64,000 nt of DNA from Armatimonadota bacterium. GTDB taxonomy: Bacteria; Armatimonadota; Fimbriimonadia; Fimbriimonadales; GBS-DC. The translations under genes were made by a program, and so were the position numbers. The stretch's first letter is position 1. Each line of letters opens with the position of its first letter. The notes under the pieces are model-generated. The model saw only the letters and a list, made by a program, of their open reading frames with translations. It ran no database searches and was not told where the DNA came from. Where the stretch lies: the NCBI GenBank assembly GCA_013359125.1, contig JABWCR010000006.1, forward strand, positions 12,643 through 76,642, given 5' to 3'. Below, one piece after another: positions 1,891 to 30,966 of this stretch.

Positions 1891-2955
1891 ATGAAAGCGA
1901 TATGGGCGAGTTTGGCGATAGCGATAGCATTTGCAACGGTGGGACAGGAGCCTGCTCAGAAGAAAGGCGTACAGGGATTTGAGAACTCGGACGAGGGATG
2001 GATTATTTTGCCCGGCGCCGACGGCAAGGCGGAGCGCACGAGCAACCCGAACGATGTGAAATCTGGCGAACGGGCGTTGGTTTACACGTATGTAACGGGC
2101 AGCGGCAAGCTCCACGCCATAGTCAACCCGACGGTAGAGTATTACGCGCAGGGCTTTCGGTTTTGGTACAAGACCGACCGACCGACCATTCTGGCGTTCA
2201 TGCTCTCCGAACAGGGCGACGAGCGCTGGGTGGTCTCGCTCTGGTCGTCGGGCAATCAGTGGCAGCAGGCGACCCTTGCGCTGTCCGACTTTGAACTGGC
2301 AGAGGATGCGACCATCGTCAACAGCAAGATCGACATGGAGAAGATGGAGGGCATGGGCTTTGTCGACCTTTACAGCATTCTGGCGGGAAACAGCGACCTG
2401 GGGATGCTCTTAGGCACCATGCCGGGAACGCACATGCTGTGGCTGGACGATTTTGAGAGCCTTGAGAAGGCGCCCGCGCGCGCGGCACGGGCCGAACGGA
2501 TCATAGACGACTTCAAGCGAGACTACTTATCGTGGGGCGGGACGGCGAACGTAGCTCTGAGCAAAGTCGGCGAGGGGATGGAAGTTCGATATCGCCAGGA
2601 GAATCAGGGTCTGTTCGCGGTGTTTCACGGCTTGACGCCCAAGCGCGCCGCTGGATCGAAAGGCGTTTCGGTCAAGATCAAGATCCGAGCTGCGACCACG
2701 ATGGCGCTGACCGTGGAAGAGACCGATGGCGAGCGGTGGGCAATGACCAAGGACATAGGTGGCGAATCGGGCTTTACAACTTGGGAAGTCCAGTGGTCCG
2801 AGATGACCATCACCGACGACACCAAGGGCAAAGGCGACGGCAAGTTCGATGCGTCGAAAGTCAAGATGATCTCTTTGCTCGATCTGGGCGCGCTGCTCGA
2901 TACGGCCGAACCGGCCAATAGTTGGACGATCGGCGAGGTCGGCCTGATCAAATAG
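1891..2955 (+). CDS. secreted protein with two beta-sandwich (CBM/CIA30-like) halves
   Basis: AGGAGG at 1879-1884, 6 nt before ATG 1891. Signal peptide MKAIWASLAIAIAFATVGQ. Two similar ~150-aa halves. The track ORF from 1762 overlaps the divergent upstream gene and is probably too long. Confidence 0.55.
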   Translation: MKAIWASLAIAIAFATVGQEPAQKKGVQGFENSDEGWIILPGADGKAERTSNPNDVKSGERALVYTYVTGSGKLHAIVNPTVEYYAQGFRFWYKTDRPTILAFMLSEQGDERWVVSLWSSGNQWQQATLALSDFELAEDATIVNSKIDMEKMEGMGFVDLYSILAGNSDLGMLLGTMPGTHMLWLDDFESLEKAPARAARAERIIDDFKRDYLSWGGTANVALSKVGEGMEVRYRQENQGLFAVFHGLTPKRAAGSKGVSVKIKIRAATTMALTVEETDGERWAMTKDIGGESGFTTWEVQWSEMTITDDTKGKGDGKFDASKVKMISLLDLGALLDTAEPANSWTIGEVGLIK

Positions 2956-3550
2956 GCTTGGTCGGCTCTAACAGCGCGATCAGCGCTTGTTCGGCTTCCC
3001 TGGGCTTAAACCCCGCAGGCCCAGGGGCGCCCTTATAGACGATCTTGCCCGTTTTGTCGATCACGTAGATTCGGTCGGGCCATCCGGCGTAGGCTTTCTC
3101 AACGGCATCGTCTATGCCGTCCACGACGACCGGGAAATCGAGTTTGAGTTTAGCGGCGCAAGTATCGGCGACCTCGTTTCGCTCCGTAAGGCTCCTTGGA
3201 GTTCTGACAATGACGCCTTGCGTTTCGTTCTGAGGAACTTGCCAACCGTCCGACGGATGCGCCTCGCGCACGTAGACCAATCGCACGTCGGCTCGATCTT
3301 TGTAGTCTCGAAAGATTCGATTGAGCGCCCCGACCTGGGCGCGAAACGGCGGTCAGGTGTAGCTTCCAAAGATCAGAAAAGTCGGCCGCTTGCCAAAATT
3401 GTCGGAAAGTTTGAACTCCTTGTCCGAGTTCAGAACTTTGAGAGTGAAATCTGGCGCTTTGTCGCCCACCTTGAGCGCTCCCTGCTGGGGGCGATCGCGC
3501 TGTGCCTGAAGAGCCAGCAGCGTCGCCAATACGAGAATGAGCGCTTTCAT
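2948..3550 (-). CDS. secreted iodothyronine-deiodinase-like thioredoxin-fold selenoprotein (in-frame UGA = Sec at 3355-3353)
   Basis: Track ORFs 3353-3745 and 2948-3286 share one frame, separated only by TGA. Read-through gives LIFGSYT-U-PPF ... VYVREAHPSDGW ... RIYVIDKTGKIVYKGAPGPAGF. Signal peptide MKALILVLATLLALQAQ. The ATG at 3550 overlaps the lgt stop (ATGA). Confidence 0.7.
3325..3342 (-). promoter_or_regulatory. candidate bacterial SECIS hairpin
   Basis: RNA GCGCCC-AGGUCG-GGGCGC (6-bp GC stem, 6-nt loop containing GGUC) begins 10 nt after the UGA. Confidence 0.5.
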
Positions 3551-4335
3551 GATTGCTTGGACGGCTCGACGGCGGATTTGTTCAATGATGAGCGCCAGAG
3601 ATAGAGCGCAAGGCCAAAGGCGAGGGCGCCGATCGCGGCCAGATGTCCGAAGGTGAACGGTTCGACCCAATACTTTGAGGTTGCGCCCGCGCGGAAGAAT
3701 TCGTTGACGAATCGATAAGCGCCATAGAGCATGAGAAATTGGCAAAAGGTCTGGCCAGTGAAACGCTTTCTCTTTTCCAGCAACAGTAGCGCTGCGAAGA
3801 TGCCCAGACCGAATAGAAAGGAGTAGATTTGCGTCGGATGGCTAGGCTCTGTCATAACGCCGGGTCGGTCTTCCATTGGAAAGGTCAGGCCCCAGGGCAC
3901 GCCGGTCGGGCAGCCGTAGCAACAGCCGGCCAACAGGCATCCCAGCCGTGCGATGGCGTAGGCGAGGGCGAGCGAAGGGGCAAAGCAATCGGCCGCGGGC
4001 CAGAAGGACATCTTTTTGGCCCGCATGCAGAGATAGACGCCTAGGCTGCCGCCGACCAGGCCGCCAAAGAAACCCAGCCCGCCTTGCCATATGGCGAAAA
4101 CCTCCAACCAATTGTCGCGAAACTCGCGCCAGTTCATGGCGACGTAGACGATTCTCGCGCCGACAACGCCTCCAAATACGCCCGCCAATGCGCTGTCGAT
4201 GGCGTTTTCGGGCTTCATGCCAAAGCGGGGCGCTCTGCGGGCTGCGATCAACACGGCGACGATAATGCCGACCACCCACATCAGGCCGTAGCCTCGGACG
4301 ACGAACGGGCCGACCGAGAAGATTTCGGGCATCAT
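3547..4335 (-). CDS. lgt: prolipoprotein diacylglyceryl transferase
   Basis: 262 aa from ATG 4335 (ATGA overlap with the lspA stop). Polytopic membrane protein with the Lgt-type Gly-rich block WQGGLGFFGGLVGG. The track ORF extension to 4542 lies inside lspA. Confidence 0.9.
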   Translation of the reverse strand: MMPEIFSVGPFVVRGYGLMWVVGIIVAVLIAARRAPRFGMKPENAIDSALAGVFGGVVGARIVYVAMNWREFRDNWLEVFAIWQGGLGFFGGLVGGSLGVYLCMRAKKMSFWPAADCFAPSLALAYAIARLGCLLAGCCYGCPTGVPWGLTFPMEDRPGVMTEPSHPTQIYSFLFGLGIFAALLLLEKRKRFTGQTFCQFLMLYGAYRFVNEFFRAGATSKYWVEPFTFGHLAAIGALAFGLALYLWRSSLNKSAVEPSKQS

Positions 4336-4799
4336 GAGGCGGCCTCTCTCTTTATCGCGCGCGAGACTTTTAGAGTCATGACGACGTATAGGATTACGGC
4401 AGCGTTGATACTGATATCCGCGATGTTGAAGACAGGCCAAACCCGAAAGTCGAACATATCGACGACGTAGCCGCGAAAGATGCGATCGACCATGTTGGCC
4501 AACGCTCCGCCCGTCAGCAACCCGAGCGCGACCTGCCCCCACTTTGGCGTTTGGGGATGGCGGATCAGGTAGAACACGACCGCCAGCACGATAGCGACCG
4601 CGAGAGGAATCGTCAGCCAGCCTCGGTCTTGCAAGAGGCCAAACGCAATGCCGGTGTTGTGCGTCAGCGTAAGGTGAAAGACGCCATTGATGATCGGTCT
4701 GCTTTCGCCCAAGACTAGATTTGAAACGGTGAGCACTTTGACCGCCTGATCGACCGCGACGGCGCCGAGGAGCGTCGTCCAGAAGTAAAACGCCTTCAC
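4332..4799 (-). CDS. lspA: lipoprotein signal peptidase II
   Basis: 155 aa, GTG start in a GTGA overlap with the radC stop. Four TM segments. Motifs HNTGIAFG and FNIADISI. Confidence 0.9.
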   Translation of the reverse strand: MKAFYFWTTLLGAVAVDQAVKVLTVSNLVLGESRPIINGVFHLTLTHNTGIAFGLLQDRGWLTIPLAVAIVLAVVFYLIRHPQTPKWGQVALGLLTGGALANMVDRIFRGYVVDMFDFRVWPVFNIADISINAAVILYVVMTLKVSRAIKREAAS

Positions 4800-7346: not shown

Positions 7347-8822
7347 TTAGAGCCATGTCAAGAAGCGCGAGACTTCCTTTGAGTACGATCCGAACGGATC
7401 GCGCAGGTCGATCTGGCGCATACGGTCGACATAGACCATGTCCCAATCAACATAGTACTTGGACGGACGGGATTCGCAGAGTTTCTTGACGATCGTCGCT
7501 CGAGCGCCTGCTCGGGTGTTGGTCGGCGCCTGTTCTGTAGCGGTCTCGATCCGCTCGTCAGTCACTACTCGCTTGACGGCGCCCATCTCTTCTAAAGCAT
7601 GGTAAAGGCCCTGATCGGGATTGATATTGTGGTACTCGAGATCGATGCTGTGGAGCGAATCGTCGTCCCAATCGACGCCCGCATCTTCCATATACTCCCG
7701 AAGAATGTTCTGTTTGATGACCCAATCGATACGATCGTCTAACTGTTCCGGATCGGTCTCCAACAGGTTGAGCACATAATCCCATTCGGTCAGCACCCAA
7801 TCGGTCTCTGCGTCCCGACCGGCGAAGCGCTTTTGCGCCAATGCCAGGTAGGCGCGCTGAAGATCGATGGCCGAGATGGAGTCGCCATCGATCAAGTGCA
7901 CGATCCATTTCCGCGTTTCGTCGCGCGATATGTGCCGCATGGCGTTCAGCGGGTCTTGAATGCGCAGGTAGCTGGGCAATGCGCGCGCCTCCATCAAATC
8001 GAGTACCAGGCAGGTTGCGCCAATCTTGAGCGCGAACGCGTACTCGCTCATATTGCCTTCGCCATACAGAAGGTGCAGCCGCTGGTAGTTGCTGGAGCCA
8101 TAGACGCTGTCCCACTTTGGGTTGATGATGGCCCGATTGAAGCGCACGCGGGAGGCGGTAACGCGAACGATGTGATCGGCTCGCTGGGAGAGTTGGAACT
8201 TGACCGTCGGATCCGGCAACACGTTGTAGACTTGCGAGACCCAGATAAAGTCTATCGGATGCTGCGCCATGTCTCGCAGGGAGGGCAATGTGTTGGAGTG
8301 CTCCAGAATGTGGCCGCCCACTCGCCCGGACCCGCCGTATATCTGCCGCGTGATCAAGAAGGGCAGGATCAGGTTAAACGCATCGGCCGGATACCGCTCG
8401 TCAGCACGAATCAAGTAGTTCTCGTGACAGCCGAACGTATGTCCGCCAAAGTGATCGACGTTGTTGTTGTAGAAGGAGACTTTATCGTCCCATCCCATTT
8501 CCCGAAGGATGTTCACAATGATCCTTTGTCCCGCCTTTTCGTGCGCGACCAAGTCGAACAGGCTGGCGCACTCGGCGGTTGCGAACTCGAGGTGGCTTCC
8601 GACCGCGTCGATGTAGAGGCGCGATCCGTTTTTTAGGAATCCGCCGCTTCGGGCGGGCTCGAACGCTTCGTCTCGGGCGGTCAGGTCGATCAGGCCCAAT
8701 CCGGCTTTGTAGAATGCGTGGTTTTTGACTGCTTCGACGACGGTTTCGGCGCCCCCGAGGGAATCGTCCCGAATCAGGCAGCCAAACTCGGTCTCGATGC
8801 CGAACACGCGTCGGCCGAGCAT
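7347..8822 (-). CDS. pafA: Pup-ligase-family protein, PafA-like (modifier ligase)
   Basis: N-terminus MLGRRVFGIETEFG, then RLYIDAVGSHLEFATAEC and GCHENYL blocks as in PafA. Occupies the position after prcA. An alternative ATG at 8870 would overlap prcA by 35 nt. Confidence 0.8.
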   Translation of the reverse strand: MLGRRVFGIETEFGCLIRDDSLGGAETVVEAVKNHAFYKAGLGLIDLTARDEAFEPARSGGFLKNGSRLYIDAVGSHLEFATAECASLFDLVAHEKAGQRIIVNILREMGWDDKVSFYNNNVDHFGGHTFGCHENYLIRADERYPADAFNLILPFLITRQIYGGSGRVGGHILEHSNTLPSLRDMAQHPIDFIWVSQVYNVLPDPTVKFQLSQRADHIVRVTASRVRFNRAIINPKWDSVYGSSNYQRLHLLYGEGNMSEYAFALKIGATCLVLDLMEARALPSYLRIQDPLNAMRHISRDETRKWIVHLIDGDSISAIDLQRAYLALAQKRFAGRDAETDWVLTEWDYVLNLLETDPEQLDDRIDWVIKQNILREYMEDAGVDWDDDSLHSIDLEYHNINPDQGLYHALEEMGAVKRVVTDERIETATEQAPTNTRAGARATIVKKLCESRPSKYYVDWDMVYVDRMRQIDLRDPFGSYSKEVSRFLTWL

Positions 8823-8835
8823 GGATTCGCCGCTC

Positions 8836-9570
8836 TTAAAGAGTCCTGAGATGCCTTTCAACGGTTTCATGATCGATTCGTCGGAAGCGGTTTTCTCTAT
8901 GGGTTCGGCGTTCGAGGATAGCGGCCTCGATCTCGCCTTGTTCTATCGCGGTTTTTAGCGCGGATATGGCTTGATCGTCGGTCGGTTCCTCTTCCAACTC
9001 GATGGAGGCTTTTGCGGCGCCCCAAGCCAAGAGACAGGACGGCAGAGCCTCGTCGATCGTGCCGCCGTGCTTTAGGCGGCTGGTTGCGGCCTCCTCGGCC
9101 TTGTCGTCGCCTGCGACGACTGCTCGGTTCTTTTGGGGCGCATAGTCCCCGTCATAGCCCAAAGTGAAGAACTTATCCTCCTCCAATTGGTCGGCGACCT
9201 CGGCAAAGAGGCCTCTTGCGACTAACGGCGAGATGGTCGGGTCTCCAAATGCGCGTTTGACCGCAGGGCTTAACGCGACGCCTACCACTCTCTGGATCGT
9301 AACGTCGTCCGGGCTGCGGGCAAAGCCTTCTTGATGGGCAAAATCGATCGCGGCGATCCTCAGAGCCTCGACATCCGATTGAGCCCCCAACGCGCCATAG
9401 ACCAACTTGTCGTAGATCTCATAGATTTTGGGAGATCGACGGCGCACGCTCATTATCAAGACCCCTTCGGCGCACGAGGCGGCCACGACCGGGCTGCCGT
9501 CGCGCAGGCGCAGGCGCACAAACTCCTCTCTTCGGTTGACGCTTTCTTGCCAGTCGTAAGGCGTTATCAC
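8836..9570 (-). CDS. prcA: 20S proteasome alpha subunit
   Basis: 244 aa immediately downstream of the beta subunit (1-nt gap). Ntn-hydrolase-fold-like sequence without an N-terminal catalytic Thr. Confidence 0.8.
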   Translation of the reverse strand: MITPYDWQESVNRREEFVRLRLRDGSPVVAASCAEGVLIMSVRRRSPKIYEIYDKLVYGALGAQSDVEALRIAAIDFAHQEGFARSPDDVTIQRVVGVALSPAVKRAFGDPTISPLVARGLFAEVADQLEEDKFFTLGYDGDYAPQKNRAVVAGDDKAEEAATSRLKHGGTIDEALPSCLLAWGAAKASIELEEEPTDDQAISALKTAIEQGEIEAAILERRTHRENRFRRIDHETVERHLRTL

Positions 9571-9571
9571 T

Positions 9572-10327
9572 TTATTTGCCTAATTTGGAAATAGCGGCTC
9601 GAAGCTCTTCGTCGGACAACGAGACAACGCCTTCCTCGGATACGCGCTTTGCGGTCGGTAGCACCTTGTCGAATCCGCCTGTGGCCGAATCGAGGTCGGA
9701 GGCAATGTCCAGCAGCGTCAAGGCGTCTTTGAGAACGTCGTCGTAGGGTCTTTCTTCGAACTTGCCGCGGGTCTTTTCGATATATTCGAACGCTCCTCGA
9801 ATTCGTTCCGATCCGGATCCCGCGGCCGTATAGGAATCGCTTTCGAATCGCGCGCCAGAGGCGTCGTAAAAGTAGATTCTCGCTCGCGATTCTGCCAGAT
9901 CATAGGCCGTAAGGATTGGCACGAAAAGACCAATTCCGCTCATTGCATTGGGGAGATTGGCCGACAGAGCGCGCGAGATCTCTTGCAGTTTGCCGTCCAG
10001 ACTCATCGGTTGAAGCTGGCTGCGCGAAAAGTACTTGAACGCATGGCGCAGGTAGCGCGCCGACTCGATTGCTCGACCGTAGGCGCCTGCCAAGGCTATG
10101 AGCGTATAGTCGTCCAGGGCGATGATCTTTTCTGCTTTGTCGTACATGATGGCGGCAGCCGCCGTCGCTCTGCGATCGCCCAGGTTGAGCGCGCCGCCTT
10201 TATACTTAACGGCCAATACGGTAGTGCCGTGCGTCTCCAAGCCTGCCGCAGCATTCGGATGCGCTACTATCGAGAAGGGCAAGATGCCGTTCTCGGCCAA
10301 AAGCGCCGCAAAGTCGCCTTTGCTCAT
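9572..10327 (-). CDS. prcB: 20S proteasome beta subunit (with propeptide)
   Basis: A 34-aa propeptide ending ...ETHG is followed by TTVLAVKY. Counting from that Thr, Asp17 (LGDRR) and Lys33 (DKAEK) are in place. Confidence 0.85.
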   Translation of the reverse strand: MSKGDFAALLAENGILPFSIVAHPNAAAGLETHGTTVLAVKYKGGALNLGDRRATAAAAIMYDKAEKIIALDDYTLIALAGAYGRAIESARYLRHAFKYFSRSQLQPMSLDGKLQEISRALSANLPNAMSGIGLFVPILTAYDLAESRARIYFYDASGARFESDSYTAAGSGSERIRGAFEYIEKTRGKFEERPYDDVLKDALTLLDIASDLDSATGGFDKVLPTAKRVSEEGVVSLSDEELRAAISKLGK

Positions 10328-10331
10328 GCGG

Positions 10332-10517
10332 TTACTCGCCGCTCCTTTGGCGGTACTTTTTGGCCTGTTCCGGGTCTACCTTTCTCATGCGTTTGAGAAG
10401 TTCGTTCGCGCCCGGACGGTCTACTTTGGGCGACTTTGGTCCGTCCTCGTCGCCGTGCTTGGTGGACCGCTCCTGCGGGATCGGCTTTCTCAATCGGTCT
10501 TCTGTTCTAATGATCAT
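10332..10517 (-). CDS. Pup-like small protein modifier, UBact-type (C-terminal RSGE)
   Basis: 61 aa, charged and low-complexity, ending LLKRMRKVDPEQAKKYRQRSGE-stop. Start ATG overlaps the Dop-like stop (ATGA). The stop is 4 nt before the prcB start. Confidence 0.72.
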   Translation of the reverse strand: MIIRTEDRLRKPIPQERSTKHGDEDGPKSPKVDRPGANELLKRMRKVDPEQAKKYRQRSGE

Positions 10518-12040
10518 AATTGGCTCCTTAGCGCATCTGCGATCGCGTCAGCGAAGGCTGTCGGGTCGTCAATTCCCTGCAATGTCTCCAGCAGTTTGGT
10601 CAAATCGGGGTCGACCAATCTCTCTAAGTTGATCGTTCGCTCGCCCCTGTCCGTCTTTAATCGAAGTCGTCCCCAACTTATCCATACGATGCGGTCGGCA
10701 AAGCGTTGCACGGCCAAGCCTCTTATCTTGGCGCGGGTCGCGTCCATTGCCTCTGAGATGGATGACTGGGCGGTCTCGTCAGAGATCAGCGCCAGCAACT
10801 GGCCTTGGTCTACCAAAGCCTGATAAAGGCTCTCGGTTGGATTGAGTAGATGGTACTCCATATCGAGGGCGGCGATCATAGGATCGGACAGTTCGACTCC
10901 GTCCGAATCCATGTAGAGCCTGAGCAATCCCAGTTTGGCCGCCCAGTCCGCTCGGTCGGATAGTCTCATCGGGTCGTCGTCCAGCAAGTCGAGGCATCGC
11001 TCCCACTCCGCCATTACCCAGTCCGTCTCTTTGTCTTGACCTTCCAACAGTTTGGCGGCTTCGGAGAGATAGGCGCGTTGCACGTCGGTTGCTCGAATCT
11101 TCTGTCCATTGCTCAGTTCCACCGTCCAAGCGAACTGCTGGTCTCGCGAAATCTCTTTGATCGCTCGGACAGGGTCTCTTATCTCTATCTTGGGCTGCCA
11201 TCCGTGCTCGATCAGGTCGAGCGCGATCCGGGTTGTCCCGACTTTCATCGCGGTGGCCCAATGGGATCGGTTGGCATCGCCACAGATGACATGGAGCCGA
11301 CGATATTGGGCTGCGTCCGCATGAGGCTCGTCGCGCGTGTTGAAGATGGGGCGCCGATAGAGGGTATCGACGCTGGCGATCTCGCTGATGAAGTCGGCGC
11401 GCTGAGAGATTTGGAAGGCCGCTTTAGGCCTCCTCTCACCTTCAATGATCGCTTTGCCTGCGCCTGTAAAAATCTGCCTGGTTGATAGAAAAGGGATGAG
11501 TCCCGCCAAGAGCCGATCGAACTCTACGTCTCGGCGGCAGAGGTAACTTTCGTGGCAGCCATAACTTGCGCCATGGTAGTCCGTGTTGTTCTTGTAAACC
11601 CTTACCTCGGCTCCGACGTTTTTTGAATAGGTTTGCGCGCACTGCTGCACGATCTGTTCGCCCGCCAGGTCGGCGGCAACAAGCGAGAGAAGCCCGACCG
11701 TTTCGGGCGTGGCATATTCGGGATGGCCATGATCGTTGTACAGTCTGCCGCCGTTTGATAAGACGCGGTCGGCGACGGCTTGTTGGCCAAAGGCGCGCAC
11801 CGTGCTGGATTGCTCGAAGCGATCGTCGTTCGGGTCGGTCTGAAGCCGATCGGCCCGAAAGCCCCGCATGTCTCTTCGCGGGTCTTCTAAGGAGTAGTTC
11901 CACTTTCGCACTCCGTCCAAGGGGCACGAGCGCACGATTTCCGCAGAAGCCTCCATCAGTTGAGAGACCGGAAGCCCCTCGACCGTAAAGCCGTATTCCG
12001 TCTCAAGCCCGACTAATCGACGCACACCGAGATTATACAT
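10514..12040 (-). CDS. dop: Pup-ligase-family protein, Dop-like (deamidase/de-conjugase)
   Basis: RRLVGLETEYG, WNYSLEDPRRDMRGF and RLYNDHGHPEYATPE resemble Dop blocks rather than PafA. Occupies the position before the modifier gene. ATG 12040 gives an 8-nt overlap with the upstream gene. The track start at 12091 is GTG with a 59-nt overlap. Confidence 0.8.
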   Translation of the reverse strand: MYNLGVRRLVGLETEYGFTVEGLPVSQLMEASAEIVRSCPLDGVRKWNYSLEDPRRDMRGFRADRLQTDPNDDRFEQSSTVRAFGQQAVADRVLSNGGRLYNDHGHPEYATPETVGLLSLVAADLAGEQIVQQCAQTYSKNVGAEVRVYKNNTDYHGASYGCHESYLCRRDVEFDRLLAGLIPFLSTRQIFTGAGKAIIEGERRPKAAFQISQRADFISEIASVDTLYRRPIFNTRDEPHADAAQYRRLHVICGDANRSHWATAMKVGTTRIALDLIEHGWQPKIEIRDPVRAIKEISRDQQFAWTVELSNGQKIRATDVQRAYLSEAAKLLEGQDKETDWVMAEWERCLDLLDDDPMRLSDRADWAAKLGLLRLYMDSDGVELSDPMIAALDMEYHLLNPTESLYQALVDQGQLLALISDETAQSSISEAMDATRAKIRGLAVQRFADRIVWISWGRLRLKTDRGERTINLERLVDPDLTKLLETLQGIDDPTAFADAIADALRSQL

Positions 12041-12545
12041 CTGACAGGCGTTTAGTAAGCCACTCTTCGACTTCGGCAAGCGAATCGGCACGGTCTGCGA
12101 CTTCCGGCAAAGCGTCCGCCCAGCCGAAAAGAAGCAACGGCTTTTGCATTCGGAGCGCCAGAGCGATCTCGTTAAGCGTGCCGTCGCTCCCCGGCAGGGC
12201 GATGATCAGGTCGCTGGTTCTGACATTGATCCAGTTTCGCGTTGCTGCATCGGGAGCGAGCGGGTCGAAAGCGCCGAGAGGCGCAACGACCGGGATTTCG
12301 ATCCATTGGTTAGGGTAACCGGGCGGCAATCGATGGTCGGCGCCTATGGTGGGCAAGATGCCGATGCTGGCGCCTTTCCTTTCAGGCTCTTCGACAAAGG
12401 CCTTGGCGACCGAAGCCATAACGCCCTGTCCACCGCCTGTAAGGAGATTCAGCCCTCGCCTGGCGAGCAGTCTGCCCAGAGGTTGCGCCAAGTGCGGGCG
12501 GTCTTCTGTGCCCGACCCCATCACGCCTACTATAGGACGCTTCAT
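12033..12545 (-). CDS. TIGR00725/LOG-like (SLOG, Rossmann) family protein
   Basis: 170 aa. IVGVMGSG ... LLTGGGQGVM ... LPGSDGTLNE resembles the LOG PGGxGTxxE motif. Confidence 0.7.
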   Translation of the reverse strand: MKRPIVGVMGSGTEDRPHLAQPLGRLLARRGLNLLTGGGQGVMASVAKAFVEEPERKGASIGILPTIGADHRLPPGYPNQWIEIPVVAPLGAFDPLAPDAATRNWINVRTSDLIIALPGSDGTLNEIALALRMQKPLLLFGWADALPEVADRADSLAEVEEWLTKRLSDV

Positions 12546-25172: not shown

Positions 25173-26852
25173 TTAGGCCGCCAACCTTATCGGAGGGGCG
25201 GATTCTTCGGCTTCCATCTCTTCCAAATCGTTGGCCACGACGCGGAAGAGTTCCTCGATCGAAGTTCTGCCTTCGATCACGTGTCTCGCCGCGTCTTGAT
25301 AAAGAGGAACCATCCCGCCTTCTGTGGCGCATTGACGGATGACCGATGTCGATTCGCGCCGCATAACCGCCTTCCTCACGGCATCGTCCATCAGCAGGCA
25401 TTCCAAAATGACGGTTCGGCCTCGATAGCCTGAAAAATTGCACCGATGACAGCCGACAGCGCCAAAAGTACGGACGCCGTCGAACGACACGCCCAACCGT
25501 GCTGCCAAAGCCGGGTCGGGCGCGGCATCCGTCTTACAATCGGGGCACAACAGCCTAATAAGCCTTTGCGAGCAAACACCGACCAGCGCCGAAGCCAACA
25601 AGAACGGCTCTATGCCCATCTCCAGCAGGCGACCGGGCGCGCCCGATGCCTCGTTGGCATGAAGGGTCGAAAACACCATGTGGCCCGTGAGAGCGGCTTC
25701 GATGGCCACTTCCGCCGTTTCTTGGTCTCGAATCTCGCCCACCAGCACCACATCGGGGTCTTGGCGCAAGATCGAACGCAGGCCGTTGGCGAACGTCATC
25801 CCAGCCTTGACGTTCACGCTGCCTTGGGTAATGCCCGACAATTGGTACTCGACCGGGTCCTCGATGGTGATGATGTTGCGCTCCGCGCTGTTCAGATGGC
25901 TTAGGCAGCCGTACAGCGTCGTCGTCTTTCCGCTTCCGGTCGGGCCGCAAACCAGCATCATGCCGTAGGGTCGCTCCACAACCGTTTGAACGCGCTGAAG
26001 CGCCATCGGATGCAGGCCGAGTTTTTCGAGTTCGAATACCAGGGAGGTCTTGTCCAAGATTCGCATGACGACCTTCTCGCCGAAGATCGAGGGATAGGTC
26101 GAGACGCGCAGATCGTAGGCCTTGCCAGCGACCGAGTAGGCAATGCGTCCGTCTTGGGGCGATCGTTTTTCGGCAATATCCATCTCTGCCAAAATCTTAA
26201 TTCGGGCGACCACGCCGTCGTGCAGTTCTTTCGGGACTTCGGACGATTCTCGCAGCGCTCCGTCCACTCGGACGCGCACCCGCGAGCGGTCGGCCATCGG
26301 TTCGATATGAATGTCGCTCGACCGATCGGCGATGGCGCGGTTGAGAAGCGCCTCCACCAAGCGGACGACAGAAGCATCTTCTTCCGAATCGCTTTGGATT
26401 CGCTCCACAACGGTGCGGACGTCCTCGTCCAGCCCATAGTAGCGCATGAGGGCGTCGTGTATCTGAGTCCGCGAGGCGACCGTTACAATGACTTCTCTCC
26501 CCGTCGCCGATCGCAGATCGTCCAGCGCCATGATGTCTGCCGGATCCGACATGGCCACGACGATCTGATTGCCTTGGACTGCGACCGGCATAGCCTTGCC
26601 TCTCACCGCAACATCGCGCGGCACCGCCGCGATCGCGTCTGCAGAGGGATGCGTCGATTGAAAATCGACAAAGGGCACGTTGTAGACGGCGCTGAGCGCC
26701 TTCGCCCGATCGCTCTCCGTGATCGCGCCGACGCGAATCAGGTAATCCTCTATCTGCTCGTTGGCATCCTCCCGCTTGGCCAAAAGCTCGCCCAAGCGAC
26801 CGGCATCGATCATGCCTTCGTCAATCAGGACGTCGGTCAATCGGCGAGTCAT
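25173..26852 (-). CDS. pilB: type IV pilus/T2SS assembly ATPase (GspE/PilB family)
   Basis: N-terminal GSPII_E_N-like domain, Walker A GPTGSGKTT, tetracysteine CPDC...CHRC. Confidence 0.9.
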   Translation of the reverse strand: MTRRLTDVLIDEGMIDAGRLGELLAKREDANEQIEDYLIRVGAITESDRAKALSAVYNVPFVDFQSTHPSADAIAAVPRDVAVRGKAMPVAVQGNQIVVAMSDPADIMALDDLRSATGREVIVTVASRTQIHDALMRYYGLDEDVRTVVERIQSDSEEDASVVRLVEALLNRAIADRSSDIHIEPMADRSRVRVRVDGALRESSEVPKELHDGVVARIKILAEMDIAEKRSPQDGRIAYSVAGKAYDLRVSTYPSIFGEKVVMRILDKTSLVFELEKLGLHPMALQRVQTVVERPYGMMLVCGPTGSGKTTTLYGCLSHLNSAERNIITIEDPVEYQLSGITQGSVNVKAGMTFANGLRSILRQDPDVVLVGEIRDQETAEVAIEAALTGHMVFSTLHANEASGAPGRLLEMGIEPFLLASALVGVCSQRLIRLLCPDCKTDAAPDPALAARLGVSFDGVRTFGAVGCHRCNFSGYRGRTVILECLLMDDAVRKAVMRRESTSVIRQCATEGGMVPLYQDAARHVIEGRTSIEELFRVVANDLEEMEAEESAPPIRLAA

Positions 26853-28171
26853 TGGCCTTCCTCTTCGTCGGAGATGATCGTTGGCGACAGGAAGATCAGA
26901 AGCTCGTTCTGGCTCTTGGTCGCTCGCCGGTGTTTGAACAGTTCGCCCAAAACGGGTATTTGGGATAGAATCGGCACGGACTGCATGGATCGGGTCTCCT
27001 CTTCGCGTATCAATCCGCCCAAAGCAATCTGCGATCCGCTTTTGACCCTGATCTTTGTTCTGACTTCGCGGGTTGATATTTGCGGGTAGGTGCTTTCGCC
27101 AATGCGCAGGAAGCCGGTTACGACCGAGACCTGAGGATAGATGTCGAGCGTAACATTGCCGTCCTCATCGGCCCAAGCCTGAACCCTCAGCACGACGCCG
27201 ACCTCTTGCTCTCGCACGTCGAAGAGCGGCGTGCCGGCGGTCGTTGTTCCCGTTACAACAGGATAGAGCAGACGATCGCCGATCAGAATGTGCCCGGTTT
27301 CGCCGTTCATGACCATCACGTTCGGGTGAGCCAGGAGCTTCGCGTTGCCTTTCTGCTCCATCGCTTTGAGAGTGGCTTCGATGCTGAGAGGGCTTCGCCA
27401 AAACGGGCCTTGGTGACTGGGCTTCAGCAGAGGATCGTTCACATAAGAATCGCGCTCGGAAGGGCGGACGATCTCTTGCCAGGTCGATTTGCTCCAGTCC
27501 CACAAGATTCCCATCTCGCCCAGCGAGGTCCGGTTGACGTCCGTTACGATCACCTCGATCTTGACCTGAACCGGTTTCTTGTCGATCGTCTTTGCGGTCT
27601 CAACGGCTTCGGCGACCATGTCTGCCGGGCCTCGGATGATGATCTCTCGACCGGCCGCGGGCGCCGCGGCTTCGGTAGAAGGCGTCGCAGATTCGCTTTC
27701 AGAATCCATCGATCCAGACATCTGCGGCAATGAGACGACGGCGCTTGGGATGATGGTCAGTTCGGGAAAGAGGCTCTTAAGAGCGCCTATGAGCGATGCG
27801 CTCGTTACGAACTTGGAGGAATAGACGCTCAGTGCGATTGTGGCCGGTCTGGCGGGTACGGCCGGTTCGTAGGCCTTCAGGTTCTCGGGTGTAGCGACTA
27901 CATAAGCGCCTTCGACTTTGGCATAGGCCAAGCCATGCGGCCTTGTAAGGAGTTCTAGCGCCTGTTCGACTGTAACGCCTTTGAGGGTTGCCGTAGCCCG
28001 ATAGTCTGACGGAACGTTCGAGATAATGTTCGTGCCCGACTGCTGGCCGATCATCTGGAGCGCGACCGCTAAAGGCATTGAATCGAACTCTAGGTCGAGC
28101 TTTCGCTCGTCTTTGAGCGAAGTTGAAAAGGTCAAAAAGATCGAGAATGCGATCGTCCATATCCAGCTCAT
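26849..28171 (-). CDS. pilQ: secretin (PilQ/GspD family), short form
   Basis: 440 aa. Signal/anchor, STN/secretin-N-like region, C-terminal secretin block GGLIREEETRSMQSVPILSQIPVLGELF. ATGA overlaps at both ends. Confidence 0.85.
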   Translation of the reverse strand: MSWIWTIAFSIFLTFSTSLKDERKLDLEFDSMPLAVALQMIGQQSGTNIISNVPSDYRATATLKGVTVEQALELLTRPHGLAYAKVEGAYVVATPENLKAYEPAVPARPATIALSVYSSKFVTSASLIGALKSLFPELTIIPSAVVSLPQMSGSMDSESESATPSTEAAAPAAGREIIIRGPADMVAEAVETAKTIDKKPVQVKIEVIVTDVNRTSLGEMGILWDWSKSTWQEIVRPSERDSYVNDPLLKPSHQGPFWRSPLSIEATLKAMEQKGNAKLLAHPNVMVMNGETGHILIGDRLLYPVVTGTTTAGTPLFDVREQEVGVVLRVQAWADEDGNVTLDIYPQVSVVTGFLRIGESTYPQISTREVRTKIRVKSGSQIALGGLIREEETRSMQSVPILSQIPVLGELFKHRRATKSQNELLIFLSPTIISDEEEGQ

Positions 28172-28779
28172 GGCTCTACTCCTTGGGGCGCGGAACCCAG
28201 TTTAAGGCGGTACTGCTTTCCTTCGTGCTCTACCGTGATTTCGTACTTTTGACGGTCGATGACCCGCCATTCCGAGCTCGGCTTCGAGTCGGCGATGAAG
28301 ACCTTCCCGTTCACTTCGATGGCCGCTCTTTCTTCGCCGTTCGCGCCGCGCACGATTCCTCGAAGCAACGGCTTAGGCGGCTCGGGCAACGGCTCTGGTT
28401 CAGTTCTTGTCTCTGCGGGCTTCTCCGGCTCAGGTTGTCCCGTTGGTCTCATGCTCCATCCGTCAGGCGGCGAGTCGAAAGAGAGCGGCCGAAGCGGCGT
28501 TTCCGGCTGCGGATTCGGTTCGGCTCTCGTTTCGGTTCCTGTCCTAAAGGGCTCTTCTCGTTCGGCCGGCGCTTGATCCAATCTCTGTCGAAGCCGCTCG
28601 TAGTAATCTGCAGGCGGCCCCGCATCGCTGGTGGGCGCCGTTTCATCGACTATTGGAGCGACCGACGTTGTAACGGGGCCGCCTGCTGCCTTCTTGGGAG
28701 AGAGCATGGGAACCGCAACGCTCAACAGCATAACGACCGCTCCTGAGATCAAGAAGACCTCGCGTTTGGGCTTCTTCAC
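28168..28779 (-). CDS. Pro/Glu-rich membrane-anchored protein in the PilP position
   Basis: GTG 28779 in a GTGA overlap with the upstream stop. One TM (VFLISGAVVMLLSVAV), a long PE-rich linker and a small C-terminal beta domain. Assigned by position only. Confidence 0.35.
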   Translation of the reverse strand: MKKPKREVFLISGAVVMLLSVAVPMLSPKKAAGGPVTTSVAPIVDETAPTSDAGPPADYYERLRQRLDQAPAEREEPFRTGTETRAEPNPQPETPLRPLSFDSPPDGWSMRPTGQPEPEKPAETRTEPEPLPEPPKPLLRGIVRGANGEERAAIEVNGKVFIADSKPSSEWRVIDRQKYEITVEHEGKQYRLKLGSAPQGVEP

Positions 28780-29357
28780 GCGCCGCCCCCAGAATCCGAC
28801 GCAGGCATCAGGGCTTCGAACTCTACGATCATCTGAGGCTGTGCGGAGTCGCCCTTGGTCGATATGTTTATGCCATTGGGCGCGACCACAAGCGCGTCTC
28901 TGCGGATATCGTCGATCCATCTCGCAACGCCCCGAGAAGGACCTTCGATGCGAAACCGCAAGAGCTTCTTCTTCCAGATCGAATCCGGGTCGTCGCCGGG
29001 GGCAGAAGAAACGTCGACGCCAAGCGGCCTTAAGTTGTGGCGCCTGGCTAGCGCGGACATGCGCGAAATGACGTGCGAAACGGGATTGGTCGCTTCTTCC
29101 AATTTGGAGGCAATCGCGAAGAGCTCTGCATTCGCGCTCGCTCTGCCCGCTAGCGAATCTTGCTCCGATCGGACATGCTCTATCTGGCCCTTAAGAGCCT
29201 CGATGTCGGAGACGTATCGATTCTTGATCGTCAGAAGAGCACCCGCGACTATAGTCGATATAGAAACGGCCGATATGGCGGCCCACTTGAGCCTTGACGA
29301 CCGGGACTCGGCGAACGCGAGCGTCGCCCAAAACCGTCTGGCGGACAGCGGCCTCAT
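28776..29357 (-). CDS. pilO: PilO-like pilus assembly protein
   Basis: 193 aa. N-terminal TM, coiled-coil segment, C-terminal alpha/beta domain. Lies between the PilN-like gene and the secretin. Confidence 0.5.
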   Translation of the reverse strand: MRPLSARRFWATLAFAESRSSRLKWAAISAVSISTIVAGALLTIKNRYVSDIEALKGQIEHVRSEQDSLAGRASANAELFAIASKLEEATNPVSHVISRMSALARRHNLRPLGVDVSSAPGDDPDSIWKKKLLRFRIEGPSRGVARWIDDIRRDALVVAPNGINISTKGDSAQPQMIVEFEALMPASDSGGGA

Positions 29358-29908
29358 TCTGTCTCCTCCGCACTTGCCTGGCTTGGAGCGATCAGCCTAA
29401 TTTCAAAACGGGAGGCGCCGTCCGTTTCTCCTCTGTTGACCGACGATGGCGTCACCTCGGTGAAGAGTCCCACAGTGCGCAGTCTTTCGCTATAGGCTTT
29501 GATCGCTTCAAAGTCCTGTGCGCCGCCGCGAAGGTTGACCGACCAACCGCTTTCGTGCTCAAACTGCGCCTGCATCTCTTCGAGCCAGGCTTGCAACGGC
29601 ACGGTCTTGCCAGTCGCCATGACGGCGAGCGAGAACTCTTGGCACCGCGCCCTGGCGTTTTCAAGGTCGGCCGCCTCGAATGGCGGCATCGATTCTTCGG
29701 GCGCATCGATCAACGCTTTCAAGATGGTCTCTTGCCTCGCTTTCTCGACGCGCAGATCGGGAATCAACAAGGCAAAGGCCGCCAACGAAAGGATGGACAG
29801 GGCGCTCCCGCTCACAAAGGCGACGAAAAGCCCCTTGATCTTGAGCAGTTCGCGCTGGCGTCGAGCACGCCACTCCATTGCCAGGTTGACCGGTCTCATT
29901 GCGCTCAT
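29354..29908 (-). CDS. pilN: PilN-like pilus assembly protein
   Basis: ATG 29908 in an ATGA overlap with the pilM stop. N-terminal MRPVNL motif (INLLP-like), one TM, periplasmic domain. Confidence 0.5.
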   Translation of the reverse strand: MSAMRPVNLAMEWRARRQRELLKIKGLFVAFVSGSALSILSLAAFALLIPDLRVEKARQETILKALIDAPEESMPPFEAADLENARARCQEFSLAVMATGKTVPLQAWLEEMQAQFEHESGWSVNLRGGAQDFEAIKAYSERLRTVGLFTEVTPSSVNRGETDGASRFEIRLIAPSQASAEETE

Positions 29909-30966
29909 GCGGCCAGGGCCTCCTGACAAGCGATGATCGCGGCTCCCAATGCAGGACAATATGGATTCAGGTCGTCTTCTTTTAGCTTCTCGGGCCAATC
30001 GAACGCGGCCTCTAGATCGCCGGGCAAGCAGGTAACCCCCAGCGAAGCCGAGCAATAGCGCTCCAATCCCCTGATCGAGGCGCCCTCGCCCGTCAAAACA
30101 AAGGCGTCCAGCAATCCCAAGTAACTGCCGTCTGGGAATCTCGATCTCTGAAAGTCGGCCAATCTTCTCATCTCTGCAGTCAGTTCGTGCAGAAACTGCA
30201 GCGCCGAGATGGGCGGCAGCCCTAATTCTGTAGGGAACTGCAGCAGGCCGGCGTCATCGATCGTTGCCTCTCGCAATAGGGCGACGGCTTCGTTCGTGTC
30301 GGCCCCCACGAAGCGACCGATCGTATCGATGAGTTCGTCAGTGCCATGGTTGAGGGTGCGGGTGAACTCCAATCTCGTTTCGCGCGCCACAGTCATTTCT
30401 ATATATTCCGCCTGGAGATTGATGGCGGCTGTGGCTTTGCCTTTCCACAGAATGCTGTCCGTCGCCTGGTTTCTCGTAAGCGCCGCCACAACGGCATCCG
30501 ATTCGGGCGCGGCGACGACGGGGACAAGGCCGGCCAACAGCGCTGCATCCAAGCGCCCATCGATGACCGACCTTGGCGCAGCCACCAAGCGCGCGGGCAG
30601 CGGCACGTTCTCGTCTCCCGTCTCGTATGCTTCGGGCGGCACGGAGAAGCGATAGGTCATCGGTTCGGCGGCGTTTGGCAGTCTTTTGGGGCCTTCGAAC
30701 GGGGCAGCAGCGTTGAGTTCGTCCAGGCTGATTCTTGGAGCGTCGACCCACTTGTTGAGGGCGCGCGGAACGGCGATCGCGACCGGTCCGTTGGCCCGAA
30801 CGCGCCGGGCCAACTGACCGATTGTCGCCGCGACCTGCTTTAGATTGACGACAACTCCGCCCGCGACCGAGCCAGGAGGCGACAGAGTCCGGCATGCCGC
30901 TTTAACCCTGCTTTCGGCGAGCGCGACCATCGTTATATATCGAGAATTGATTTCCAAGCCAACCAT
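29905..30966 (-). CDS. pilM: PilM-like actin-fold pilus assembly protein
   Basis: 353 aa. N-terminal VGLEINSRYITMV, typical of PilM/FtsA-like proteins. First gene of the cluster. Confidence 0.7.
   Translation of the reverse strand: MVGLEINSRYITMVALAESRVKAACRTLSPPGSVAGGVVVNLKQVAATIGQLARRVRANGPVAIAVPRALNKWVDAPRISLDELNAAAPFEGPKRLPNAAEPMTYRFSVPPEAYETGDENVPLPARLVAAPRSVIDGRLDAALLAGLVPVVAAPESDAVVAALTRNQATDSILWKGKATAAINLQAEYIEMTVARETRLEFTRTLNHGTDELIDTIGRFVGADTNEAVALLREATIDDAGLLQFPTELGLPPISALQFLHELTAEMRRLADFQRSRFPDGSYLGLLDAFVLTGEGASIRGLERYCSASLGVTCLPGDLEAAFDWPEKLKEDDLNPYCPALGAAIIACQEALAA

Follow-up and report, generated by a model that had tools for sequence, protein, structure and literature searches.

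In this work, we analyzed a 64,000-nucleotide (nt) stretch of Armatimonadota bacterium DNA (GCA_013359125.1, contig JABWCR010000006.1, positions 12,643 to 76,642; hereafter the window) and provide evidence that two open reading frames (ORFs) annotated on its minus strand are very probably one intact gene, which encodes a deiodinase-like selenoenzyme with a UGA-encoded selenocysteine (Sec), exported or membrane-tethered. The gene is an ordinary but mis-annotated member of a known family, and the outcome is an annotation fix, not a discovery.

The ORFs 3353-3745(-) and 2948-3286(-) lie in a common frame. The ORF listing and the translation clearly showed that the TGA at 3355-3353 is the sole in-frame stop inside 3550-2948(-), and the 22 codons of the stretch 3352-3287(-) are free of stops, just as the original prediction had claimed. 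Read-through from the ATG at 3550, expected to yield about 200 amino acids (aa), comprises 200 codons including the UGA, with the product MKALILVLATLLALQAQ...FGSYT-*-PPFRAQVGALN...EAHPSDGW...YKGAPGPAGF. The terminator TGA 2950-2948 is an ordinary stop, not followed by a hairpin of the selenocysteine insertion sequence (SECIS) type. It was also foreseen that gene callers would take the locus for two genes; indeed, the deposited annotation of GCA_026646355.1, where the window corresponds to record positions 36412-100411 (reversed) of contig JAPKFX010000010.1, divides it into 65-aa and 112-aa ORFs. The features of the gene are as follows:

2948-3550, minus strand: joined gene, very probably for a deiodinase-like selenoprotein, from ATG 3550-3548 to TGA 2950-2948, 200 codons including Sec66
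3500-3550, minus strand: hydrophobic leader MKALILVLATLLALQAQ, read from the sequence
3353-3355, minus strand: UGA, very probably read as Sec (U66) in the motif FGSYT-U-PPFR, by comparison of homologous codons
3325-3342, minus strand: hairpin GCGCCC-AGGUCG-GGGCGC, 6-bp stem and 6-nt loop, with its start 10 nt downstream of the UGA
3242-3265, minus strand: EAHPSDGW block with E96, H98 and W103, equivalent to Dio3 E200, H202 and W207
3158-3160, minus strand: codon of C131, a candidate resolving Cys and the second redox residue conserved in the family, from the relatives' alignment

The leader contains no lipobox Cys and is likely a type I signal peptide. A strongly hydrophobic 12-mer is located N-terminal to the domain in 115 of the 123 relatives with a complete upstream frame, in line with a protein predicted to be exported or tethered to the membrane.

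Conservation of the in-frame TGA codon

To compare the homologous codon, the genome scan took one genome per species and the best 80 relatives, which belong to Armatimonadota, Planctomycetota, Acidobacteriota, Verrucomicrobia, Poribacteria and Kuenenia; the nearest ones found were Armatimonadetes and Fimbriimonadaceae metagenome-assembled genomes (MAGs). The codon is TGA in 74 of these 80 genomes and TGC (Cys) in six, all of the latter being Isosphaeraceae or Planctomycetaceae. When metagenomes were scanned from a Cys-form seed, only TGA forms came back (78 of 78 readable loci). Combined, the related loci carry TGA in 152 cases out of 158 and TGC in 6, and the closest relatives all have TGA, which bears out the placing of U at the catalytic position in the original prediction. 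Five Cys-form DNAs were fetched individually as controls. The motif FGSYT-U-PPFR is present in 128 of the 152 Sec forms, while Cys homologues bear FGSYT-C-PPFR; the U is followed by P-P-F in 150 Sec forms and by G-P-Y in the remaining 2. Residues E96, A97 and H98 are invariant in the homologue alignment. Moreover, nine further assemblies, built from different sequencing runs, carry the 603-nt gene without any difference, and a tenth assembly differs by five single-nucleotide polymorphisms (SNPs), four of them at third codon positions, with the TGA kept; hence, the TGA is not a sequencing error. Judged from these comparisons, UGA66 is ancestral and conserved rather than a sign of damage.

Protein databases contain the relatives in two forms, full-length proteins and C-terminal fragments with lengths of 110-134 aa. 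Among 66 full-length entries, the Sec position is occupied by C in 38, W in 27 and G in one. The closest full-length database protein, P0001, shows W where its own DNA reads TGA, so its caller must have applied a code that reads TGA as sense. The W and G entries (P0001, P0006, P0009 and 25 others; the DNA was checked for P0001 only), many of which bear the name 'peroxiredoxin', probably represent selenoproteins to which genetic code 4 or 25 was applied. Public protein sets appear to conceal the family in three guises, namely C-terminal fragments, 'peroxiredoxin' entries in which W occupies the Sec position and a single entry with G there; therefore, protein-database counts of bacterial selenoproteins would miss it.

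The hairpin downstream of the UGA codon

The hairpin at 3342-3325(-), pointed out in the original prediction as starting ten nt after the UGA, has a stability of -11.8 kcal/mol when folded alone. According to PMC13188914, bacterial SECIS elements possess a loop of 3-9 nt, a stem of 4-16 bp and a G among the first two nucleotides of the loop; the published model also gives a UGA-loop spacing of 16-37 nt and a minimum free energy (MFE) of -7.5 kcal/mol or lower. The window hairpin falls within all these limits, with G at loop position 2 followed by another G, and a spacing of 16 nt. At 58% G+C the stability of a single sequence is uninformative, so the significance of the hairpin rests on the comparison with relatives.

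For this comparison, an ungapped alignment of 75 Sec-form sequences was used. The family hairpin has a 7-bp stem beginning 10 nt after the UGA and a GGU loop, and 83% of the stem cells are paired. In 57 cells both sides are altered; the covariation amounts to 0.389 vs. 0.111 in shuffled alignments, none of the 500 shuffles reaches it, and the score drops when the pairing partners are slid. RNAalifold recovered this helix, with a bulge of one nucleotide, and compensatory change in 6 of its 7 pairs. The compensation passes through the protein sequence: the acidobacterial members encode R-R-E-V-P-A (CGG CGG GAG GTT CCC GCC) and the window group R-A-Q-V-G-A (CGC GCC CAG GTC GGG GCG), such that the GGG:CCC arms are exchanged between the two groups. 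The mean stability of the Sec forms, -12.3 kcal/mol, exceeds that of their synonymous recodings (-7.4 kcal/mol) and of 11 Cys forms (-9.0 kcal/mol; Mann-Whitney p = 1.8e-4).

The original prediction had pointed to a likeness to the E. coli fdhF SECIS, and it holds. The fdhF segment compared is 100% identical to fdhF in the two matches listed, and of the 5,419 E. coli genomes with this segment nearly all show at least 99% identity. The two elements have an identical CAGGUC loop core; fdhF has a GGUC loop on a stem beginning 11 nt past the UGA, as compared to 10 nt in the window, and the G-U dinucleotide lies one nucleotide nearer to the UGA in the window. The loop comprises 6 nt in the window and 4 nt, closed by an A-U pair, in fdhF. 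In contrast to the minimal upper stem-loop of fdhF, the window hairpin has no bulged U, its 6-bp stem being continuous and built of G-C pairs only.

An alternative 71-nt MFE fold, in which CCUGACC pairs with GGUCGGG across the UGA, was rejected: it needs the ACC codon preceding the UGA, which is variable in relatives (ACT, ACG, ACA). One Cys-form gene (P0005, TGC; locus L175, 301-903) keeps the family hairpin, GGCGTCA-GGT-TGACGTC, after the codon at -17.5 kcal/mol; this may be the remnant of a SECIS in a gene that changed from Sec to Cys.

Family, active site and possible substrate

The original prediction had assigned the protein to the deiodinase family on the basis of its sequence blocks, and profile searches agree. 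With Cys in place of the UGA, the joined protein matches Pfam T4_deiodinase (PF00837) at 117.9 bits (E 5.6e-34, cut-off 27). AhpC-TSA (PF00578, 42.7 bits) and Redoxin (42.4 bits) match the same stretch above their own cut-offs, far under PF00837. By eye, there is no Pro seven residues ahead of U66, a residue that the peroxiredoxin active-site motif requires before the catalytic position. The only strong sequence matches among solved structures are mouse Dio3 (4TR3, E 9.1e-21) and Dio2 (9H48, E 3.6e-19). The fold was modelled on the full-length homologue P0001, and the AlphaFold2 model has a mean predicted local distance difference test (pLDDT) of 93.1. In a Foldseek search with this model, 9H48 (template-modelling scores 0.77/0.81) and 4TR3 came first, ahead of DsbE, ResA and peroxiredoxins. 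The homologue model thus predicts a thioredoxin fold of the deiodinase type with the deiodinase-specific insertion and with deiodinases as the closest structures. The similarity to NCBIfam NF038285 (deiodinase_rel) is also strong (231.7 bits, E 1.7e-68, under the curated cut-off of 250), but only profile positions 176-344 of 347 are matched, and the window protein is devoid of the N-terminal part of about 175 residues found in that architecture.

Animal Dio1-3 and the window protein have in common the blocks FGS-x-T-U-PPF, Y-x-x-EAHPSDGW and RSL-x-x-R, the block Y-x-G-x-x-GP-x-G-aromatic (YKGAPGPAGF in the window, YQGGRGPDGY in Dio3), an N-terminal hydrophobic segment and, according to the P0001 model, the fold. 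The SECIS position differs, being inside the coding sequence (bacterial type) in the window and in the 3′ untranslated region in animal deiodinases. As described in PMC7506546, U170 of Dio3 is the catalytic Sec, S167, T169, Y197, E200, H202, W207 and R225 form the anchor network of the active site, and R275, D211, H219 and R176 serve thyroxine binding or line the pocket. The HMMER alignment to 4TR3, read with these roles, gives the following equivalences:

Dio3 S167, anchor network: window S63
Dio3 T169, anchor network: window T65
Dio3 U170, catalytic Sec: window U66
Dio3 P171 and P172, active-site turn: window P67 and P68
Dio3 Y197, anchor network: window Y93
Dio3 E200, anchor network: window E96
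Dio3 H202, anchor network: window H98
Dio3 W207, anchor network: window W103
Dio3 R225, anchor network: window R124
Dio3 R275, thyroxine binding or pocket: window P176
Dio3 D211, thyroxine binding or pocket: window Q107
Dio3 H219, thyroxine binding or pocket: window P118
Dio3 R176, thyroxine binding or pocket: window Q72
Dio3 C168, cysteine: window Y64
Dio3 C239, cysteine: window F139

The anchor network is thus fully kept, while other residues stand in place of the two Dio3 cysteines and of those related to thyroxine. In particular, the thyroxine-binding residues R275, D211 and H219 of Dio3 are not matched in the window protein, which suggests a substrate other than thyroxine. Instead of the Dio3 cysteines, the window protein has C131, which sits on the helix following the insertion. 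A Cys located 55-75 residues after the U is found in 150 of the 152 Sec forms and is the sole downstream Cys in 123 of those. This distribution points to a two-residue redox cycle, with U66 as the nucleophile and C131 as the resolving residue.

On these grounds, the following mechanism may be proposed. SelB with Sec-tRNA(Sec) would bind the hairpin 3342-3325, in which the GGU of the loop comes 17 nt past the UGA, and UGA66, as the comparison with relatives suggests, would be recoded as Sec. In the T-U-P-P-F turn, U66 would be held by the network of S63, T65, Y93, E96, H98, W103 and R124, conserved in animal deiodinases, and the conserved residues make it a probable nucleophile. The oxidised selenium would be a selenenic acid or a selenenyl halide, resolved by C131 and then by an envelope thiol reductant. 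As a candidate substrate instead of thyroxine, either a peroxide or a halogenated aromatic compound may be considered, and the data favour neither. One could imagine these predicted exported Sec enzymes, abundant in Acidobacteriota, Planctomycetota and Armatimonadota of soil, as reductive dehalogenases with halogenated phenolic substrates in the cell envelope, an activity ancestral to that of the animal thyroid-hormone deiodinases and passing from a selenenyl halide to a selenenylsulfide via U66/C131. We regard this as rather unlikely; the evidence does not favour a dehalogenase over a peroxidase role. The U66/C131 pair and the loss of the thyroxine-binding residues nevertheless narrow the experiments on the substrate that would be worthwhile.

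On the same contig, outside the window, there is a gene for a 724-aa Thioredox_DsbH/Thioredoxin_7 protein adjoining a pyridine-nucleotide disulfide oxidoreductase (locus L177, 14126-17812). That these proteins are envelope/redox candidates able to reduce the selenoprotein is speculative.

Deiodinase-like selenoproteins of bacteria, occurring in Sec and Cys forms and equipped with a bacterial SECIS, were reported from the Sargasso Sea in 2005, and a redox role was proposed for them (Zhang, Fomenko and Gladyshev, Genome Biol, PMC1088965); the selenoprotein lists in reviews of 2022 and 2026 include the family among the prokaryotic ones (PMC9312934, PMC13188914). The window gene resembles this family in its PF00837 domain, in the Sec/Cys catalytic position and in its bacterial-type SECIS, which follows the UGA directly and has a G in its small apical loop. 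The representative motif in those review lists is UxxC, as compared to U-P-P-F in the window gene, and the family was first found in marine metagenomes, whereas the relatives described here are mostly Acidobacteriota, Planctomycetota and Armatimonadota MAGs. Relative to the passages on the family in PMC1088965, PMC9312934 and PMC13188914, two points may be additional: the predominance of the Sec form among the closest relatives, mostly in MAGs of these three phyla, and the conserved U/C131 pair.

Alternative readings and neighbouring genes

Several observations weigh against a functional selenoprotein gene. First, selA, selB, selD and tRNA-Sec were not found in about 81 kb (the window plus 17 kb of flanks) of the 113-kb contig: the window has a single tRNA, tRNA-Pro; neither SelA, SelB nor SelD is among the 15 large window ORFs inspected, and no hallmark motif of theirs occurs in any frame; and two 10-kb extensions along the contig (17 kb of new flank) revealed no Sec-machinery genes. 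Second, the local fold is not more stable than dinucleotide shuffles (z from -0.15 to -0.41), and 12% of the synonymous versions of its 12 codons fold equally well, making the window hairpin only marginally better. Third, this hairpin pairs one nucleotide off the register of the family consensus. Fourth, no Rfam match to the hairpin was obtained either in a gathering scan of the window or in a permissive scan of 3250-3420. Finally, the fold model is that of a homologue 62% identical to the window protein, not of the protein itself. Two of these points carry little weight: bacterial SECIS elements are gene-specific, which limits the meaning of the Rfam result, and 81 kb is a small part of the genome, so that the absence of sel genes there says little and neither supports nor refutes the Sec reading. 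The inspection by eye of the 90 other TGA-separated frame pairs listed for the window revealed none that looked coding, and thus no candidate for a further selenoprotein gene.

The missing sel genes, together with the shifted and individually non-significant hairpin, would fit a relic, in which the Sec machinery has been lost and UGA66 either terminates translation or has Cys or Trp inserted by near-cognate tRNAs with low frequency. We consider this improbable. Both upstream and downstream of the TGA the frame is unbroken, and the family-invariant residues are kept; the gene is identical across assemblies, and the SNPs of the variant (L082) are mostly at third positions. The hairpin is retained at -11.8 kcal/mol in a register common to other Sec-form members: it recurs in L171 and, with the arms swapped (GGGCGC...GCGCCC), in L097.

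A nonsense pseudogene, resulting from a recent change of TGC or TGG to TGA in a Cys-type deiodinase-like gene, is conceivable insofar as TGA is one substitution away from both codons and Cys-form homologues exist. This explanation is close to refuted and very improbable, given that the TGA is ancestral, as follows from its presence in all the closest relatives and in 152 of 158 loci, that the gene bears no other lesion, and that a SECIS-type hairpin follows the codon.

Two separate small genes of 65 and 112 aa, as annotated by gene callers and with a GTG at 3286(-) to start the downstream piece, have a negligible probability, since the split would cut a single thioredoxin-fold domain one residue before its active site (the ground on which a truncated 65-aa product had been dismissed from the outset), the conserved helix PPFRxxVxxLNxxY would fall into the 22-codon gap from the TGA to the GTG, and Cys forms are single polypeptides. 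Just as negligible is a UGA sense codon for Trp or Gly (table 4 or 25), suggested by the W (27) and G (1) in the relatives' public gene calls but refuted by stop-codon usage: TGA is the stop of 14 among the 42 long window ORFs, lgt and the selenoprotein gene (dio) itself being two of them, and the W of P0001 is the caller's choice of table. The window therefore uses the standard code, and the decoding of UGA66 must depend on context. The preferred reading, a single selenoprotein gene, means merging the two hypothetical ORFs and predicts a complete Sec-insertion system elsewhere in this Armatimonadota MAG.

The dio gene is the final member of an lspA-lgt-dio run (Peptidase_A8, LGT, then the two ORF pieces), with the following junction and upstream genes:

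3547-3550, minus strand: ATGA overlap of the lgt stop TGA (3549-3547) with the start ATG (3550-3548), from the ORF listing
3547-4799, minus strand: lspA (Peptidase_A8) and lgt, directly upstream of the selenoprotein gene

The linkage with lspA/lgt was not found at the 80 relatives' genome loci and is specific to the window species. Clustering of the flanks of these 80 loci, dominated by spurious high-GC ORFs, yielded no recurrent neighbour gene hinting at the substrate. Individual neighbourhoods were as follows. For two Cys forms (P0024 and P0054; loci L173 and L174), the gene has an FG-GAP/UnbV_ASPIC gene on one side and a large gene with Cytochrome_C554 and TPR on the other. In L066 (3538-6294), the Sec-form gene is followed by a multihaem-like ORF that contains several CxxCH motifs and belongs to a neighbour cluster present in three loci. 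Sulfatase genes flank the Cys-form gene of an Opitutaceae member (P0012, L172) on both sides.

Elsewhere in the window, a bacterial ubiquitin-like (UBact) proteasome cluster occupies 7347-12091(-):

7347-8822 (as called) and 10514-12091, minus strand: Pup_ligase-family genes
about 8836-9519, minus strand: ORF with no Pfam match, adjoining the UBact cluster genes
9572-10327, minus strand: Proteasome-family subunit
about 10332-10517, minus strand: 61-aa UBact gene

In the region 25173-30966(-), a secretin-like ORF (26849-28171) and a PilM-like ORF (29905-30966), both recognized from translations read by eye, point to a putative type IV pilus or secretion cluster.

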